A DNA stretch of 62,207 nt from a virus. Positions 223 to 32,919 of the stretch are shown here, in pieces. Within the stretch, counting starts at the first letter, position 1, and each line of letters begins with the position of its first letter. A model generated the notes under the pieces. That model had not been told where the DNA came from, did no database searches, and saw nothing but the letters and a program-made list of their open reading frames with translations. The translations under genes were made by a program, and so were the position numbers. The DNA lies in the IMG/VR virus record IMGVR_UViG_3300033149_002577; one strand, written 5' to 3'.

Positions 223-653
223 AACTGTGCTATTCTCGCCTCATGAGATTTGATTCATACATCACAGCCGTCAATGGAGCGACCACGGCCGACCCTCGAA
301 TGGGTGCATCACCGGCCACCGTTCCGAATACTCACATCGTCAACATCCGAGAGCATGACAAGGACACAGGGCGCCTAGCATCTCGGCTGATCATCGGGTT
401 GGAAGCGCCGGCGGGCGAGACTGTGGATCTTCAACTCTATCTCCTCGACAGCGCCGATGAAGACGCGGCTCCGGCTGCTCGTCATTGGTATCTGTGTGGC
501 ACGATCTCTGGTCTCGCAGGTGGAGCACTGAATCAAACCAGACTTTCGATAGCGGCGGAAGCAGTGGCAGGCGGTGGGCTGCTTTACGTTCGAGTGACAG
601 CCGAAACCATCTCAGCAGACCGACAAATTGCAATTAGAATAGCATCAGCTTAG
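210..653 (+). CDS. Hypothetical protein (147 aa)
   Basis: ORF whose ATG overlaps the upstream stop (ATGGATAAAATAG), suggesting coupling. No motif recognised. Confidence 0.5.
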   Translation: MDKIELCYSRLMRFDSYITAVNGATTADPRMGASPATVPNTHIVNIREHDKDTGRLASRLIIGLEAPAGETVDLQLYLLDSADEDAAPAARHWYLCGTISGLAGGALNQTRLSIAAEAVAGGGLLYVRVTAETISADRQIAIRIASA

Positions 654-26463: not shown

Positions 26464-28539
26464 ATGGCCGATTATGATGTCAAAGCAAAACTAGAACTCG
26501 ACGCAAAGAAGCTCAAGAAGGAAGCCGCCAAGGCCGCCAAGGCCATCAAAAAGATCGAGTCTGAACTCGAACGAACGCGGAACAAGGGGCAAGCTGCATT
26601 GAACTCACTCGGCTCGGCCTTCAGCGGGCTCGGCCGAAGCATGCGAGGATCTCGGCTCGGTCTCGGTCGTATGGTCACCGGGCTCGTTGGTATCGGAGTC
26701 ACCTATTTCGGCATCCGAGCGGTTGGCGGTGCGATCCGGGACATCGCCGGGTACGCTGGAGAAGCCAACGCATCAGTCGAAAACCTCACGCTCTCTCTTG
26801 GTACGATCATGGCCGAGATCGAGGGGATTTCATTCGGCGAAGCTCAGACACAAGCTCACGGTCTTTACCGACAGATTCAGGACATCGCCATCGTGAGCCC
26901 AGGAACGGCCAAGGAGGTCGCCGACGTCTTCACTATGGCCTATGGACCCATGAGGCGAGCCGGTCAGTCGATGGACGACATCTTGAGACTCTCGCAGAAT
27001 GCTCTCAGTGTCGCCGCTGCTATGCGGATCGACCTACCGCAGGTCTCTCGAGACATTTCGATGATGGCGTCAGGTGTCGCGGGAACCGACGTCAAAACGT
27101 TCCGACTCCTGAAGTCGATGGGGATGATCACGAAGACCACCAAAGAATGGAACGAGATGGCGCTCGCTAATCCGACGGCCGCCGCTGCGGAGCTCACCAG
27201 GATCTTCGAGCAACTCGGTGGTCCGGCTGCTGAGGCTTTCGGGAATACGTGGGCCGGTGTCTCCTCGGCCTTCGGCGACCTCGTCCAAAATTTCGCGCGG
27301 ATCTTTGGAGGCGCTGCCTTCGAGCGCACCAAGGGAGCGCTCAAGTCGGTCAACGATTTCCTCCTGAAATACCGACGCAACCTTGAGAATGTGATGGAAT
27401 TCCTCGGCGAGAAGGTTGGCAACGTTTTCGGCCGAGTCTTCACGAAAATGGGCGAGGTATTTATCGGAATCACCAGCAACCTCGACGAGTTCGCCATCAA
27501 GATCGATACCGCGATCGCCAAGATCAAAGAGTTCCTCCCGGCCTTCAAAAAGATCGCGATTGGGATGGCTGCCGGGACGATAGGGATGAAAATTCTTGGG
27601 ACGGGCCTTTCTGTTATGGGTGCTGCTCTCATGGGGCTTTCCAGCCTTAGCGGACTTGGCGCACTTGGAATAGGAGCAGCCGGAGCCGGTGGAGCCGCTG
27701 CAACGGCCGTGGGTGGCGCTGGAGCCGTTGCTGGAGGCACGGGCATTGGTGCCGCTCTTGCCGCTGCCGGGGCGGCCCTCATGACCATAGTACCTATCGT
27801 GCTCGGCGTGGCCGGTGTGTTTACCGTTGTCGGGGCTTCTATTTATGCAATCTTCGACGACGCCAGCGAGGCAGTAATAGCGCTTTTCGAGCCGATATGG
27901 GGTGATCTCCAAGAGATCGGTTTGAATCTAATGGCTTTCTTCGGGTCAGTCTGGGAGCTTCTAGGCCCGATCTTCGGCATACTTGGCGCGGGCATCGTCA
28001 CACTTTCAGGAATAATTTTGCGTTTGTTGGTATCAGCCATTCGTGGTGCGAGCGAAACTTTGATGTGGTTTGGGGATGCGATCGAAATGGCCGCTGACGC
28101 CATCGGACCACCGCTTCAAATTGCCGCTGAACATATCGTTTTGTTTGGTAATGAGATTGCGAACTTCCTCGACGGGCCGTTCAGAACGTTCGCTCGTGTT
28201 TTTTCTTCGGTTGGTTTTACAGTGACACTCCCGAACTATGGAGCAGTAGAGAGGGCTCCAGACGGACCGGTTACAGGGTTGATTTCTGGTGTCCTTGATG
28301 AAGCACGCGCGGCCTTCGATGAGGTTCCTGAATCCCTTCGACCATCCGAAGAAGGAACCGGAGTAGCACCCCCCGGTCGCCCCGGAACCAACGTCGACAT
28401 GAGGGGCTCGAGAATCACCGTAAAACAGGAATTCAGAGAAGCCGATCCCGATCGAATTTGGATGCAATTTGTCGACGGGCTTTCGAGGGAGGCGGTGATT
28501 CGGACTCAGAGCGGTCTATTAAATCCACTCACCAGATGA
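26464..28539 (+). CDS. Tail tape measure protein
   Basis: 691-aa ORF after the chaperone pair. N-terminal coiled coil (KKLKKEAAKAAKAIKKIESELERTRNK) and Gly/Ala-rich hydrophobic segments. Confidence 0.7.
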   Translation: MADYDVKAKLELDAKKLKKEAAKAAKAIKKIESELERTRNKGQAALNSLGSAFSGLGRSMRGSRLGLGRMVTGLVGIGVTYFGIRAVGGAIRDIAGYAGEANASVENLTLSLGTIMAEIEGISFGEAQTQAHGLYRQIQDIAIVSPGTAKEVADVFTMAYGPMRRAGQSMDDILRLSQNALSVAAAMRIDLPQVSRDISMMASGVAGTDVKTFRLLKSMGMITKTTKEWNEMALANPTAAAAELTRIFEQLGGPAAEAFGNTWAGVSSAFGDLVQNFARIFGGAAFERTKGALKSVNDFLLKYRRNLENVMEFLGEKVGNVFGRVFTKMGEVFIGITSNLDEFAIKIDTAIAKIKEFLPAFKKIAIGMAAGTIGMKILGTGLSVMGAALMGLSSLSGLGALGIGAAGAGGAAATAVGGAGAVAGGTGIGAALAAAGAALMTIVPIVLGVAGVFTVVGASIYAIFDDASEAVIALFEPIWGDLQEIGLNLMAFFGSVWELLGPIFGILGAGIVTLSGIILRLLVSAIRGASETLMWFGDAIEMAADAIGPPLQIAAEHIVLFGNEIANFLDGPFRTFARVFSSVGFTVTLPNYGAVERAPDGPVTGLISGVLDEARAAFDEVPESLRPSEEGTGVAPPGRPGTNVDMRGSRITVKQEFREADPDRIWMQFVDGLSREAVIRTQSGLLNPLTR

Positions 28540-28545
28540 TAGCAA

Positions 28546-28574
28546 TTGTCCTCTTACGCGATAAATGATATATA
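28546..28574 (+). promoter_or_regulatory. Promoter TTGTCC-17-TATATA, 6 nt upstream of ATG 28581
   Basis: -35 at 28546-28551, a 17-nt spacer, -10 at 28569-28574, then CCAGTA and the ATG. No SD. Confidence 0.5.
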
Positions 28575-28580
28575 CCAGTA

Positions 28581-29249
28581 ATGACTATAAAACTAGAGAC
28601 TGGATTGGTTCTCGGGAAACTCACGATCACAGAAGACCTTCAGCGCAGAAGTCGCCATGGCGATAGGGTCTGGAGTGCAATCTGTGAATGCGGAATCATC
28701 ATAGAGGATACGGCATGCCACTTAAGAAAAAGAACATCATGTGGCTCACATATATGCAGAAAAATCAGAAGTGACACAAATGGCGGCTATGCACCAAACG
28801 ATGCAAGCAAGAGGATTCCTGAATATGGAATTTGGAGACTAATAAAACAGCGCTGTTGCAACAAAAACAATCCCGCGTTCGCTGATTATGGTGGTCGTGG
28901 GATATTCGTTTGTGATGAATGGATTCACAATTTCAAAGCTTTCATCGATGACATGGGAAGAAGACCAACGAAAGACCACCAAATAGAAAGAATCGATAAT
29001 TATGGACCGTATTCAAAACAAAACTGCAAATGGGCTACTCGTTTCGAGCAAGGATGTAACAAGCGAAATAATATATGGATGGAATGCAATGGAAAACGAC
29101 TGATTTTGGCCGAATGGTCAAGACAAACAGGGTTGCCTGAGAAAATGCTTCAGAATAGAAAGAGGGCTGGATGGTCTGATAATCGAGCATTGACTACGAT
29201 ACCAAAATCTGATCATCGTCGAAAAAAAATCATTTTGAATTTGCCGTAA
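28581..29249 (+). CDS. Free-standing homing-endonuclease-like / AP2-type DNA-binding protein
   Basis: Motif YGIWRLIKQRCCNKNNPAFADYGGRGIFVCDEW..F..FIDDMGRRP...IERIDNYGPYSKQNCKWATRFEQ.CNKRNN recurs in phage HNH/AP2-associated genes. The gene is visibly AT-richer than its neighbours. Confidence 0.5.
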   Translation: MTIKLETGLVLGKLTITEDLQRRSRHGDRVWSAICECGIIIEDTACHLRKRTSCGSHICRKIRSDTNGGYAPNDASKRIPEYGIWRLIKQRCCNKNNPAFADYGGRGIFVCDEWIHNFKAFIDDMGRRPTKDHQIERIDNYGPYSKQNCKWATRFEQGCNKRNNIWMECNGKRLILAEWSRQTGLPEKMLQNRKRAGWSDNRALTTIPKSDHRRKKIILNLP

Positions 29250-29306
29250 TTCTTGTCTTTTCTAGTCTTGTCGAATCGGTCCCTGTAAGTTCATGTCTAG
29301 TCCTGC

Positions 29307-29344
29307 TTGGTGCCCTACGATCACGAAAGCAACCGCAGGGCTTC
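29307..29344 (-). ncRNA. Hairpin element A1 (13-bp stem, tetraloop)
   Basis: 29312-29324 pairs with 29329-29341 around GAAA (29325-29328). Four A-C/C-A positions become G-U wobbles in the minus sense. Confidence 0.65.
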
Positions 29345-29453
29345 TTTTCTCATCCCGTCGTGTCGAATCCTGTCGAGTCGCATCTTGTCCAGTCCCGTCT
29401 CGTCCCGTTAAATCGTGTCTGGTCCGGCCCCATCGCATCTCGTCTAATCATGC

Positions 29454-29488
29454 TTGGCACCCCACCGCAACGAAAGCCACGGGGCATC
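29454..29488 (-). ncRNA. Hairpin element A2 (degenerate copy)
   Basis: Same TTGGCAC...CGAAAG...GGGGC layout, but the lower stem is weaker. Confidence 0.45.
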
Positions 29489-29558
29489 GGGTCTTGTCTC
29501 GTCCAGTCACGTCGCGTCACGCCTGGTCTCGTCCGGTCTTGTCAGGTCCCGTCAAGCC

Positions 29559-29598
29559 TGGCACCCCTGAACCCCGAAAGAGGTCTAAGGGTATCGAG
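29559..29598 (-). ncRNA. Hairpin element A3
   Basis: 29563-29575 pairs with 29580-29592 around GAAA. Three C-A/A-C positions and one G-T position. Confidence 0.55.
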
Positions 29599-29670
29599 TC
29601 TTTTCTTGTCCCGTCTCATCACGTCGTGTCTCGTCCGGTCCCGTCACGTCCCGTCACGTCTCGTCAGGTA

Positions 29671-29708
29671 TTGGAGCCCAACCAAAGTTTCACGTTTGGC
29701 CGGGCCTC
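29671..29708 (-). ncRNA. Hairpin element A4 (type II loop)
   Basis: GCCC-aa-CCAAA ... TTTGG-cc-GGGC with loop GTTTCACG. The flanks TTGGAGCCC / GGGCCTCTTGTC are shared with type I. Confidence 0.55.
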
Positions 29709-29785
29709 TTGTCGCGTCTTGTCCGGTCTTGTCAGATCCTGTCACGTCTAATCAAGTCCGATCTCGGCTCGTCCGTTCATGTAAA

Positions 29786-30325
29786 TCATGAAAGTAGCAG
29801 CCACTCAGCGAGCAACCCTTTATCAGCGGACTCCCCCTTGTCCGCAAGTTTTTGAATCGTTTTCGGCTTCGACGCCGCTTGAATTAGATGTGCATGAACC
29901 GCCAGAGAATTCGCCCGTGATCGTTCACCGGTGGAGAGCTCGCTCATGTCAGCGCTTGCAACCACGACGCTCGCAGTCTTCGCCCTTCGGCCGGCCCTGC
30001 ATATCTCGGCCTCTGTCCTCTCAAGTCGCTCTCTGGCGTCGAGGCACTTGATACGGCCTTCTTTCCTAACCCGTTGCCAGAGCACTAGATGCTTCCTCAA
30101 AACGTGCTTGATGGCCGAGTTGAGCATTCCGTACCCCTGGCCGCTCGGGTCGACCTTTTGAAGATCCCCTGGCCAGTCCTCATCGACAATGAAGTCGCCA
30201 GGTGTCCCGACCTCGAGGACGCGGATAAACCGCGAAGTCTTCGGCCCGGAATTCCCGTAGACCGGGCCTTCGTAACCATCCTCTGAAATCTCATTTAGTC
30301 TTTCGACTACTTCCTCTTGGCTCAT
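29786..30325 (-). CDS. Orphan protein P179 (179 aa), embedded between arrays A and B
   Basis: ATG preceded by AGAAAGGAAAGAAA. Acidic N-terminal half and an Arg/Lys-rich helical C-terminal half (RKHLVLWQRVRKEGRIKCLDARERLERTEAEICRAGRRAK). No family recognised. Confidence 0.7.
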   Translation of the reverse strand: MSQEEVVERLNEISEDGYEGPVYGNSGPKTSRFIRVLEVGTPGDFIVDEDWPGDLQKVDPSGQGYGMLNSAIKHVLRKHLVLWQRVRKEGRIKCLDARERLERTEAEICRAGRRAKTASVVVASADMSELSTGERSRANSLAVHAHLIQAASKPKTIQKLADKGESADKGLLAEWLLLS

Positions 30326-30413
30326 TTTCTTTCCTTTCTAGGCAAATGATTTTCGTGTCGGGTCAGTTCTAATCGTGTCCTGTCAAGTCAGGTCTTGTCA
30401 TGTCGTGTCGCGT

Positions 30414-30451
30414 TTGGTGCTCCCTGCGACCGAAAGATCACGGGGAGCTTC
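30414..30451 (-). ncRNA. Hairpin element B1
   Basis: 30419-30431 pairs with 30436-30448 around GAAA. The stem sequence differs from B3 and C1 but pairing is retained (covariation). Confidence 0.65.
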
Positions 30452-30519
30452 TTGTCTCGCCGGGTCCGGTTTCGTCGTGTCGAATCATGTCGCATCGTGT
30501 CTCGTCGGGTCATGTCGAT

Positions 30520-30558
30520 TTCGGAGCCCGACCAAGTTTTCAAGCTTGACCGGGCCTC
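30520..30558 (-). ncRNA. Hairpin element B2 (type II loop)
   Basis: GCCCG-ac-CAAG ... CTTG-ac-CGGGC. There is a compensatory change relative to A4 (CCAAA/TTTGG versus CCAAG/CTTGa). Confidence 0.55.
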
Positions 30559-30632
30559 TTGTCTCGTCTTGTCGGGTCCGGTCTTGTCGCGTCTCGTCTC
30601 GTCCGGTCGCGTCTTGTCATGTCGCATCGTGC

Positions 30633-30670
30633 TTGGAGCCCACGGCCACCGAAAGGCAACCGTGGGCCTC
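30633..30670 (-). ncRNA. Hairpin element B3
   Basis: GCCCACGG (30638-30645) pairs with CCGTGGGC (30660-30667). The three inner C-A/C-A/A-C positions all become G-U in the minus sense, giving an uninterrupted 13-bp helix. Confidence 0.75.
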
Positions 30671-30749
30671 TTGTCTTGTCGTGTCTCGTCCTGTCGAGTC
30701 ACGTCTTGTCAAGTCCTGTCGCGCCGGGTCGTGCCGTGTCGCGTCCATG

Positions 30750-31376
30750 TTATTCAATGATCTCAAATTTAAAGTTCTCAACCCGGAAGATCCCATGATC
30801 GCCGCCATTGGTCCCGGGCCTATTACAGCCGATTCCGACTTGGTAGCCGGCAGTTTCCAGGGTTTCGCTGATCATCTCAGGGTGCTCGATGATATCGGCA
30901 TCGACGACCATGAACCCGATCGCGATATTCCACGGCGGATCGATCTCAGGGAAACATCGAGGCACCCTCTTTGAGCCGCCTCTTGTCCCGTCGCTTGGTA
31001 CGGAAATCGTTCGACCGATCACGTCATCGATATGAACCGGCTCAAGCTTCTTACTTTCATCGTTGATGGCGTAGACCAACGTTTCCGGCGCTGTCGGGTC
31101 GGTCATGATCCCGCTCTTGAATCGTGCGGTGAAAGTCGACCTGTTCTTACCGGGGACCTTGTCGTTTCGGAGCTTCGAGGCCTGCTCCATGCCGAGCTTG
31201 AAGGCGATCGGCGGAACCAAAACCAGGTCGTCTTTGTTGATGTGACACCGTTCTCGCCAGCACCTCTTATCCTGCGCCTCTGCCGATTCCTTTCCCTTTC
31301 GCGGGCTCTGAAACATGCGCCCGAATGTCAGTGTGGTTAGTCCGATAATGTCCGCGCTAAAGATTCCTCTTCTCAT
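30750..31376 (-). CDS. Orphan protein P208 (208 aa), embedded between arrays B and C
   Basis: ATG preceded by CGAAAGGAAAGAGCAAG. Coding-like composition. The C-terminal region contains VVDADIIEHPE and NGGDHGIFRV. No family recognised. Confidence 0.7.
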   Translation of the reverse strand: MRRGIFSADIIGLTTLTFGRMFQSPRKGKESAEAQDKRCWRERCHINKDDLVLVPPIAFKLGMEQASKLRNDKVPGKNRSTFTARFKSGIMTDPTAPETLVYAINDESKKLEPVHIDDVIGRTISVPSDGTRGGSKRVPRCFPEIDPPWNIAIGFMVVDADIIEHPEMISETLETAGYQVGIGCNRPGTNGGDHGIFRVENFKFEIIE

Positions 31377-31461
31377 CTTGCTCTTTCCTTTCGTTAGTTA
31401 AAAAACTTCAATTCGCGTCCTGTCAGATCCGGTGCCGTCCTGTCACGTCTAGTCGGGTCAG

Positions 31462-31500
31462 TTTGGAGCCCACAACCACCGAAAGATAGCTGTGGGCCTC
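31462..31500 (-). ncRNA. Hairpin element C1
   Basis: 31468-31480 pairs with 31485-31497 around GAAA. Three A-C/C-A positions become G-U in the minus sense. Confidence 0.75.
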
Positions 31501-31587
31501 GTGTCGTGTCGCGTCACGTCCGGTCGGTCCGAATCTGATCTTGTCAAGTCACGTCGGGTCCTGTCAGGTCCCGTCTGGTCCCGTCTG

Positions 31588-31627
31588 GTTTGGAGCCCTC
31601 GCCGACCGAAAGATCAGCGGAGGCCTC
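31588..31627 (-). ncRNA. Hairpin element C2
   Basis: 31595-31607 pairs with 31612-31624 around GAAA. Three C-A positions and one T-G position. Confidence 0.65.
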
Positions 31628-31723
31628 TTGTCTTGTCGTGTCTCGTCCTGTCTCGTCGTGTCTCGTCACGTCGATTCTTTCCAAAAATGGTGGCCCTCAG
31701 CGGTCAACTTCGAGGTTGTTGGC

Positions 31724-31788
31724 TGCGACACCGTCCCGCTTCGGACCATAAAAATGTTGTTTTGTCTCCTCTTAGTTTCCGGTGTCGC
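31724..31788 (-). promoter_or_regulatory. 9-bp inverted repeat at the predicted 5' end of the cassette transcript
   Basis: GCGACACCG (31724-31732) and CGGTGTCGC (31780-31788), separated by 47 nt, lie immediately downstream of the leftward -10. Confidence 0.4.
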
Positions 31789-31795
31789 AATTCTG

Positions 31796-31824
31796 ACTAT
31801 ACGCGTTGACGCGTACCGTAGCAA
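31796..31824 (-). promoter_or_regulatory. Leftward promoter of the cassette: TTGCTA-17-TATAGT with the perfect operator palindrome (31800-31815) in the spacer
   Basis: Minus-strand -35 is the reverse complement of 31819-31824. The -10 is the reverse complement of 31796-31801. The 16-bp TACGCGTTGACGCGTA occupies the spacer. Confidence 0.6.
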
Positions 31825-31836
31825 GCTTTTTTTTCG

Positions 31837-31848
31837 CTGTGATATCCT
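31837..31848 (+). promoter_or_regulatory. Extended -10 box CTGTGATATCCT, 6 nt upstream of ATG 31855
   Basis: The identical 12-mer with identical spacing occurs before terS (59424-59435). TGaTATCCT fits the TGnTATAAT class. No SD. Confidence 0.5.
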
Positions 31849-31854
31849 CCAACC

Positions 31855-32919
31855 ATGAGCGAACCTCTTTCCATCGTCGAAACCACAGGGTCCGAACGCG
31901 GCGTTGAGCTAAACAATAGAGCCCTTCCTTTTAAGGGCGTTTCCTTCGCGGGCGAACAGCGATCCGAGAAGACAAACTACCCCGGAAATCCAGTCTCAAC
32001 GCTTCAGGTCCTCGGACCAAATGAACTCCCGACTGAAATGCAGGGCCGATGGAAAGATCAATTTCTTTACGGGATGGTTACGCTCACAGGCTGGGATGCA
32101 ATCGTCTCCGATGGTGAGCACCCGTCGGCCGAGCAGCTCGTAAAAATCTTCCATATCCTTCGCCGATCCGGGAACCTGCTCGAGGTGCGGTGGGGGCCGG
32201 AGATTCGCCGTGGCATCCTGAAACGGTTCGATCCTATCTATGACCGTGTCGACGCTGTTCGCTGGAATATGACCTTCGAGTGGACCCAATTCGGGACCGC
32301 TCAAGCGAGCCAATTCACCGGCGTTCAGCCGACGGAATCGATGTCGGCCGAACTCGCTGCAACCCTCGCCGCGCTCAACGACCTCACCTCGGGCATGCCT
32401 CAGATTATGTACCCGACCTTCGCCGATGACCTGCTCGAGCTTCAAGGCCTGATCATGGTCGCCGCCATCGCCCTCATGGAAGCCAACGCGGAAGTTCAGG
32501 GCACCCCGGAGGTTACTCAAGATGAATTCCAAGGCGTCGCTTCAAGAGCGGCCGACGTCGTTGCAAGCTGCGAGGTCATGCGGCAAGCGTTGGACGTCCC
32601 TGGAACCGAACTCGTGCCTACTGACGACGTCTCAAGCGTGCTCGCTGGCAGCACCTGGTCGAAGGACACGATGAAAGCCCTCGTCGAACTCGCTGTGGCC
32701 GCTGTGAGGACTCGCGAAATGATCAGGAACAGAACGGTTTCAGAATACCTTGCCGACATTAGGCTAAGAGAGAGTCAAACACTCCGAGACGTCTCCAGAG
32801 AATACTACGGCGCCGCTGACGACTGGACGATCATTGCCAACGCTAACGGGCTCATCGGCAGCATCCACGACGCCGGAACCCGTATCCTTGTTCCTCGGCA
32901 ATCATGGAGCACCTCTTGA
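31855..32919 (+). CDS. Tail/baseplate protein with a C-terminal LysM domain (gpX / DNA-circulation-like position)
   Basis: C-terminus YYGAADDWTIIANANGLIGSIHDAGTRILVP fits LysM. First gene of the baseplate block. Confidence 0.55.
   Translation: MSEPLSIVETTGSERGVELNNRALPFKGVSFAGEQRSEKTNYPGNPVSTLQVLGPNELPTEMQGRWKDQFLYGMVTLTGWDAIVSDGEHPSAEQLVKIFHILRRSGNLLEVRWGPEIRRGILKRFDPIYDRVDAVRWNMTFEWTQFGTAQASQFTGVQPTESMSAELAATLAALNDLTSGMPQIMYPTFADDLLELQGLIMVAAIALMEANAEVQGTPEVTQDEFQGVASRAADVVASCEVMRQALDVPGTELVPTDDVSSVLAGSTWSKDTMKALVELAVAAVRTREMIRNRTVSEYLADIRLRESQTLRDVSREYYGAADDWTIIANANGLIGSIHDAGTRILVPRQSWSTS

Follow-up and report, generated by a model that had tools for sequence, protein, structure and literature searches.

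VIPR (Viral Interference Programmable Repeat), described in 2026, is an RNA-guided DNA-targeting system which is related to CRISPR and was proposed to predate it (10.64898/2026.04.26.720920, 10.64898/2026.04.26.720927). VIPR systems are mostly phage-encoded and comprise an ancestral RAMP protein of ~20 kDa (Vipr), the accessory gene vap and the vrRNAs, each of which consists of 9-16 tandem YNNGG repeats (a GGY triplet plus a hypervariable NN dinucleotide) and a structured 3' tail of ~40 nt (10.64898/2026.04.26.720920). Vipr forms a right-handed helical filament with one protomer per 5-nt repeat, in which the triplet is sequestered and the NN is presented (10.64898/2026.04.26.720927). The NN dinucleotides pair with double-stranded DNA, every third base being skipped, and transcription of competing phages, prophages or satellites is thereby silenced (10.64898/2026.04.26.720920, 10.64898/2026.04.26.720927). 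The middle G of the SUSP1 triplet is held by specific residues of the thumb and the G-loop (10.64898/2026.04.26.720920, 10.64898/2026.04.26.720927).

The locus described here lies in a 62,207-nt stretch of viral DNA (IMG/VR record IMGVR_UViG_3300033149_002577), which as a whole is referred to as the window. Its segment 29255-31824 is very probably a VIPR cassette of a tailed phage, located on the minus strand and antisense to the tail genes. The hallmarks of VIPR were found in it: a Vipr homologue, phased repeats with hypervariable NN, guides and tails in the vipr sense and an adjacent vap gene. The guide length of 9-17 units and the tail length of ~42 nt fit the published 9-16 repeats and ~40 nt. 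The locus is closest to type II VIPR (Vipr with a Vap1-like gene); its scaffold is GAC and its tail is a simple hairpin.

The first-pass annotation, made from the sequence alone, had noticed strictly phased GTCNN units (NNGAC on the minus strand), and this observation is confirmed. Altogether, 127 phased 5-nt units are present in 13 tracts (12 had been given), which form arrays A (29255-29780), B (30355-30747) and C (31405-31674). The triplet is an exact GTC in 113 of them, which agrees with a previous hand count of more than 100. Phased GTC tracts were not found on either strand in the rest of the 62-kb window outside 29255-31674. The spacing of successive GTC triplets is exactly 5 nt in 90 of 125 cases within the arrays vs 9 of 922 in the rest of the window, and first-order Markov resamples of the array sequence gave on average only 6.3 such spacings (maximum 17). 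Fourier analysis, which had been suggested together with the spacing check, showed a period-5 power of 2.3-2.6 in the tracts 30561-30623 and 30673-30747, more than 10 times the largest background value (0.19 in 844 windows). The first of these tracts consists of 13 consecutive exact units and the second of 15 units in register (13 exact ones and two GCC variants), just as had been described, and the nine units reported at 31630-31674 were also recovered. The tract previously given as 14 units at 29491-29560 is indeed phased; its count is 13 units at 29491-29555. In the minus-strand consensus unit, the triplet is 93-99% conserved (G 0.99, A 0.97, C 0.93), whereas the NN positions, rightly called nearly free, are nearly uniform in composition and close to maximal entropy. 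The reported scarcity of A on the plus strand is real and modest in the window (0.17 at the NN positions), and it is not general among the relatives.

The two proteins that had been singled out for binding tests, P208 and P179, proved by profile matches to be Vipr and a Vap1-like protein, respectively. Comparisons with GenBank phages by blastn (the region) and tblastn (P208) gave no match, and searches of P208 and P179 against Pfam and PHROGs yielded nothing useful. The sequence identity of P208 to SUSP1 Vipr is very low, and the two are linked only by profile methods. The P208 profile built from 20 homologues matched one PDB entry, 36pp (SUSP1 Vipr protein; E=2.9e-5), and hhalign aligned P208 with Vipr of a SUSP1-like Felixounavirus over 154 columns (95.9% probability, E=5.6e-9). 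The AF2 model of P208 (pLDDT 90.6) matched best Csm3 and type VII Cas7 in Foldseek (probability 1.0, TM 0.5-0.57), with 81 matches to Csm3/Cas7 RAMPs at E<=1e-3. P208 is a Vipr protein; it belongs to the small RAMPs that have a single RRM, and both the thumb and the glycine-rich loop are present. The P179 family is very divergent. Its profile (A3) was aligned by hhalign with Vap1 of a SUSP1-like phage (89.6% probability, E=1.9e-6), the reference Vap1 being the neighbour of the reference Vipr in the same phage; as judged by this alignment, P179 is a homologue of the type II accessory protein Vap1. The AF2 model of P179 was of low confidence (pLDDT 61.8; element order H-b-H-H-b-b) and gave only weak winged-helix matches and no significant fold match in Foldseek; judging by the order of the elements and these weak matches, P179 probably consists of a winged helix and, after it, a helical domain.

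Read along the minus strand, the cassette is arranged in the order promoter, array C, vipr (P208), array B, vap (P179) and array A. Its neighbours, all on the plus strand, are the tape-measure gene with an HNH endonuclease gene at one end and baseplate-like genes at the opposite end. The tracts are set apart by ~42-nt spacers. Nine guides of 9-17 units are followed by a tail, and three shorter, partly degenerate tracts without a tail (A0, B0 and C0) are each located at the downstream end of their array. All features listed below are on the minus strand, and the folding energies of the tail hairpins are given for the minus vs the plus strand; covariation supports each of these hairpins. A candidate sigma-70-like promoter (31796-31824, TTGCTA-17-TATAGT, assigned by its 9/12 match to the consensus only) is located upstream of array C and directed into the cassette. 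Array C starts with guide C2g (31630-31674, nine exact NNGAC units) and its tail hairpin (31588-31629, -22.2 vs -13.3 kcal/mol), followed by guide C1g (31503-31587, 17 units, i.e. nine exact, three degenerate and five exact) with its tail hairpin (31462-31502, -23.7 vs -12.2 kcal/mol) and by the terminal tract C0 (31405-31461), which is situated just upstream of the vipr ribosome-binding site. The vipr gene (30750-31376) encodes the 208-aa, small RAMP/Cas7-like P208 with its thumb and glycine-rich loop (GIGCNRPGTNGGDHG).

Array B comprises guide B3g (30673-30747, 15 units, 13 with GAC and two with GGC) with its tail hairpin (30626-30672, -26.7 vs -20.8 kcal/mol), guide B2g (30561-30625, 13 exact units), whose tail (30519-30560), recognized by folding and covariation, is a variant with an 8-nt loop, guide B1g (30454-30518, 13 units, nine exact) with its tail hairpin (30412-30453, -20.5 vs -17.9 kcal/mol) and the terminal tract B0 (30355-30411) upstream of the vap ribosome-binding site. 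The vap gene (29786-30325) encodes the 179-aa P179, a Vap1-homologous accessory protein according to hhalign. Array A consists of guide A4g (29711-29780, about 13 units, nine exact) with another 8-nt-loop variant of the tail (29668-29710, -18.7 vs -14.1 kcal/mol), guide A3g (29598-29667, 14 units, 12 exact; tail 29556-29597, -17.1 vs -10.1 kcal/mol), guide A2g (29491-29555, 13 units, 12 exact; tail 29452-29490, -13.7 vs -9.2 kcal/mol), the more degenerate guide A1g (29357-29445, about 14-17 units; tail 29306-29356, -21.9 vs -15.7 kcal/mol) and the degenerate terminal tract A0 (29255-29300) at the end of the cassette.

The HNH homing-endonuclease gene (28581-29249, plus strand, with a low G+C of 0.48) adjoins the VIPR cassette. 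Together, they split the tail module between the tape-measure and the baseplate genes, with the cassette antisense to the structural operon, and look like a moron-style insertion. Transcripts of the tape-measure and HNH genes might be kept from running into the cassette by a terminator-like hairpin with a T-run (29826-29845, plus strand), which lies antisense within vap, in its 3' part; if so, a separate promoter near 31700-31850 would be required for the tail genes downstream.

The inter-tract spacers, of which the one at 30626-30672 is hairpin B3 of the first-pass annotation, are real hairpins according to both folding and covariation. Eight of nine fold much better as minus-strand RNA (e.g. 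-23.7 vs -12.2 kcal/mol) because the G-U pairs of the minus strand turn into C-A mismatches on the plus strand. The alignment of the nine tails gave a consensus of a single 15-bp stem with a UUUC loop, and compensatory (double) changes keep the pairing in 12 of the 15 stem pairs, which argues for selection on RNA structure. A second conserved complementary segment, as would be expected of a pseudoknot, was not found in the tails, with the limit that RNAalifold cannot exclude pseudoknots. The loop, UUUC in the other tails, is 8 nt long in A4 and B2 (29668-29710 and 30519-30560; GUGAAACU and CUUGAAAA, respectively); B2 alone folds without a clear energy difference between the strands. In the type II locus used as the reference (SUSP1-like), both the repeats and the tails are on the vipr sense strand. 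From this orientation, the strand-asymmetric folds and the covariation of the stems, the guides are predicted to be minus-strand (GACNN)n followed by a covarying ~42-nt 3' hairpin tail. In the last two or three units of most guides (29357-31674), NN is nearly constant (AA, GA or AC), as in ...GAGAC ACGAC AAGAC before the tail. Guides elsewhere end with CAAGG CAAGG in GGC systems (L130) and with GUCAA GUCAAGG in L040. The 3'-terminal units may be a part of the constant handle and not of the guide.

In viral contigs, a search for eight GTCs in phase revealed at least 120 loci; among those listed, ~50 are true multi-tract arrays with variable NN and the remainder are trivial microsatellites. Clustering of the ORFs beside the arrays produced two recurrent families, P208-like (in 28) and P179-like (in 23 of the ~50 array loci among those listed). 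Among the same loci, 50 of the 51 P208- or P179-like ORFs are on the strand reading GAC, and the P179-like genes are always on that strand. The 5-nt phase, whose absence from relatives would have spoken against the first-pass annotation, is kept in the arrays of the relatives. The inter-tract spacers differ between lineages, being hairpins in the window, identical 33-nt sequences in L004, the 7-nt GTGCCGN in L014 and 1-nt overlaps in L061, and the universal elements are therefore the phased triplet and the two genes. The three identical 33-nt spacers between the guides of L004 (8004-8036, 8157-8189 and 8295-8327) are not hairpins; on the gene-sense strand they contain the Shine-Dalgarno-like AAGGAGG with no obvious start codon after it. 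Tracts reach 21-25 units in L004, and a tract of 42 units is present in L113. The tracts of L036, L061 and L110 overlap by one nucleotide (GTCAGTC, a phase shift of -1), which matches the "staggered arrays" of the VIPR paper (legend to Fig. S18).

The triplet in the window is GAC (A 0.97) and not the GGY which defines the YNNGG repeats of type II. The substitution GGY>GAY is among those which abolish silencing by SUSP1 (10.64898/2026.04.26.720920), and P208 must therefore read the scaffold differently. The consensuses named in the published text, i.e. YNNGG, NNNGG, YNNNG and NNNNG, all retain the second G (10.64898/2026.04.26.720920); the GAC class, including the window, is without this base common to every consensus named there. 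Within the Vipr family of P208, the gene-sense triplet is GGC in L130, L132, L144 and L149, GUC in L040 (with a sense-strand terminator) and L142, GUU in L143, and GAC in L148 and L151-L154, five MAGs which belong to different phyla. In the distance tree of the family, systems with different triplets are intermingled; the triplet has therefore been switched repeatedly.

There is also a second, larger Vipr clade (211-300 aa), in which the G-loop of L056, GVGDWRP, is identical to that of SUSP1. Comparison of the loci L002, L036, L056, L061, L109 and L110 with L006, L025, L087 and L102 of this clade showed that the sense-strand triplet is GUC in some loci and GAC in close relatives; the difference is a flip of either the middle base or the orientation of the array. 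The arrays of L002 and L056 end in sense-strand intrinsic terminators. No residue explaining the choice of A vs G in the triplet was found across the Vipr family. The equivalent of SUSP1 W178 is N or H in the subclade of the window, but most GAC systems have F, W or M at this position like the GGC systems. The equivalent of D177 is R in six of seven non-GAC systems, but this is confounded by phylogeny.

We tentatively suggest, as a possibility somewhat short of even, that VIPR is not bound to GGY and that its scaffold triplet represents a fast-switching, system-specific identity code, G-N-Y. If true, such a code could keep co-infecting VIPR systems orthogonal, since a Vipr could not load the guides of its rival, and would provide programmable DNA binders that are orthogonal to one another. 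The GAC, GGC, GUC and GUU scaffolds in related systems indicate that scaffold recognition is evolvable, which bears on the reading of RNA by Vipr, on possible orthogonality of competing phages and on the development of several independent VIPR tools. The GAC variant may already be known to the VIPR authors, since GAC systems are present in NCBI-derived MAGs and "a related consensus" is mentioned in a figure (10.64898/2026.04.26.720920). New here are only the variant of the scaffold and the evidence that the triplet has switched; the kind of system has already been published and the increment is modest.

By analogy with the published homologue, from which filament formation, the 1-nt skip, DNA silencing and the role against competitors are taken, the cassette may function as follows. 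It would be transcribed from the minus strand, each vrRNA consisting of 9-17 GAC-NN units and the ~42-nt hairpin tail. The P208 protomers would polymerize along the repeat tract, one per 5-nt unit, and hide the GAC triplet after flipping it out, leaving the NN dinucleotides exposed. The latter would pair with double-stranded DNA with gaps, every two paired bases being followed by a skipped one, and would keep a competing phage or another mobile element from being transcribed, and P179 might assist as a DNA-binding accessory protein. One triplet per subunit of a helical oligomer on 60-75 nt of RNA had been anticipated in the first-pass annotation, and this is what the published Vipr homologue does. 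NN had not been recognized there as the informative part; in VIPR, the triplet is only the scaffold, sequestered by the protein, and NN is the guide pairing with the target DNA.

Targets of the guides were searched for in several ways. With skips of 0-3 nt, matches of all 149 guides to 1.1 Mb of sequence were as frequent as those of shuffled controls. Exact 9-unit seeds of B2g, B3g and C1g gave three, five and no matches in viral contigs, respectively, none of which extended beyond chance, and the other guides gave nothing in all seed-matched contigs. A 10-unit seed of B2g had eight matches in the metagenome collection. In L140, a 2.7-kb metagenomic phage fragment unrelated to the window, B2g agrees with the sequence at 25 of 26 NN positions if 1 nt is skipped after each dinucleotide (386-424, minus strand). 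The match keeps the frame of a 162-aa ORF (253-741), the skipped bases being wobble bases; this ORF adjoins a 441-aa glycine-rich, tail-fibre-like gene. The naive probability of the extension is about 0.04 and the peptide is of low complexity. The in-frame placement of the B2g matches is not independent evidence, since the B2g seed spells a common helical peptide. None of the other guides converged on the L140 contig, and no relatives of the target ORF were found in viral contigs, nor was a longer relative found. L140 is thus a candidate natural target of B2g on sequence grounds and is not statistically secure. The NN composition of the window fits best codon positions 1-2 in sense (r=0.68), which is not so for the pooled loci.

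With no target found for any guide, the arrays might be decoys or sponges, with scaffold-only RNAs or DNA titrating the Vipr of a competitor, or the non-functional relic of a decaying VIPR system. The degenerate units in A0, A1 and B1 would suit such a reading, as would the ability of VIPR systems to target each other (10.64898/2026.04.26.720920). However, the target search did not go deep, since it was confined to exact seeds and to a limited set of scans, vipr and vap are intact and conserved in the same cassette, and the covariation of the tails indicates selection on RNA structure. We consider a decoy or a relic unlikely, and a functional VIPR cassette remains by far the preferred reading.

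Slightly less probable still is a regulatory array of the TRAP or HutP kind, in which an oligomer would read only the triplets, with NN as spacers, and control translation or termination of the two genes or the tail operon. The optimal spacing of TRAP sites is a triplet plus 2 nt, which is the 5-nt geometry found here, and the arrays flank the ribosome-binding sites of both genes. This geometric precedent, proposed in the first-pass annotation, stands, but the analogy with regulatory binding does not, since P208 has the RAMP/Cas7 fold of a Vipr homologue and not that of TRAP or HutP. P179 is winged-helix-like and Vap1-like, as far as the model and the profile tell, and the triplet is GAC. Moreover, the homologous system was shown experimentally to use NN as a DNA guide, and nine guides with their own tails and with NN near maximal entropy would not be needed for pure binding.

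The idea that the plus strand carries DNA priming or replication signals (hairpins with 5'-GTC-3' primase triplets, as in T7 gp4 and G4-type ssi) is hardly tenable. GTC is the recognition triplet of the T7 primase, but the functional strand is the minus one, which reads GAC, and the structured elements favour minus-strand RNA through G-U pairs. Priming requires neither strict phasing nor hypervariable NN; among the loci listed, the arrays travel with the RAMP protein and Vap and not with replication genes, and relatives have GGC, GUC or GUU in the same architecture. Equally improbable are protein-coding pentapeptide repeats (15 nt encode 5 aa in any frame): although all frames are open across the tracts of the window, coding, already thought to be incompatible with the 5-nt period, is ruled out by the frequent in-frame stops in the tracts of relatives (GTCAN giving TGA on the minus and GTCTA giving TAG on the plus strand), by the changes of phase and the covarying RNA hairpins which break the tracts, and by the conservation of P208 and P179 as the only ORFs among the loci listed.

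Among the known systems, the cassette most resembles type II VIPR, as described in Escherichia phage SUSP1 (Felixounavirus) and in a P. fulva prophage. They share the phage-encoded, RAMP-like Vipr, which is small (~20 kDa) and has a thumb as well as a G-loop, the adjacent Vap1-like gene downstream of vipr, sense-strand tandem pentanucleotides composed of a conserved triplet and a hypervariable NN and followed by a structured 3' tail, and arrays both upstream and downstream of the genes. In contrast to type II, the triplet in the window is GAC instead of GGY, a plain hairpin of 15 bp with the loop UUUC replaces the pseudoknotted tail, an extra array is inserted between vipr and vap, and the cassette is antisense inside a tail-gene module; the sequence identity is very low.

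The backbone of class 1 CRISPR-Cas, i.e. the Cas7/Csm3 filament on crRNA, is similar in the RAMP fold (the best structural matches being Csm3 and type VII Cas7), in a variable guide capped by a structured constant handle and, by analogy, in protomers which would each cover a constant number of guide nucleotides, the thumb flipping bases at regular intervals. The period is 5 nt with three bases hidden in VIPR vs 6 nt with one base flipped in CRISPR. Identity with CRISPR-Cas was rejected: instead of a repeat-spacer array with contiguous unique spacers, the stretches between the hairpins are period-5 repeats, the phage-borne cassette has only two genes, and an Rfam search of 28500-32500 at E<=1 detected nothing, i.e. 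no CRISPR direct-repeat family, hammerhead or other ribozyme.

The TRAP sites are alike in their triplets with 2-nt spacers and one subunit per 5 nt of single-stranded RNA, whereas the protein fold is unrelated and the triplet is (G/U)AG in TRAP and HutP and GAC in the window. In TRAP, the triplet is the signal, the spacers are uninformative and the output is attenuation; in VIPR, it is the spacers that are informative, with the triplet as the scaffold and DNA targeting as the output.
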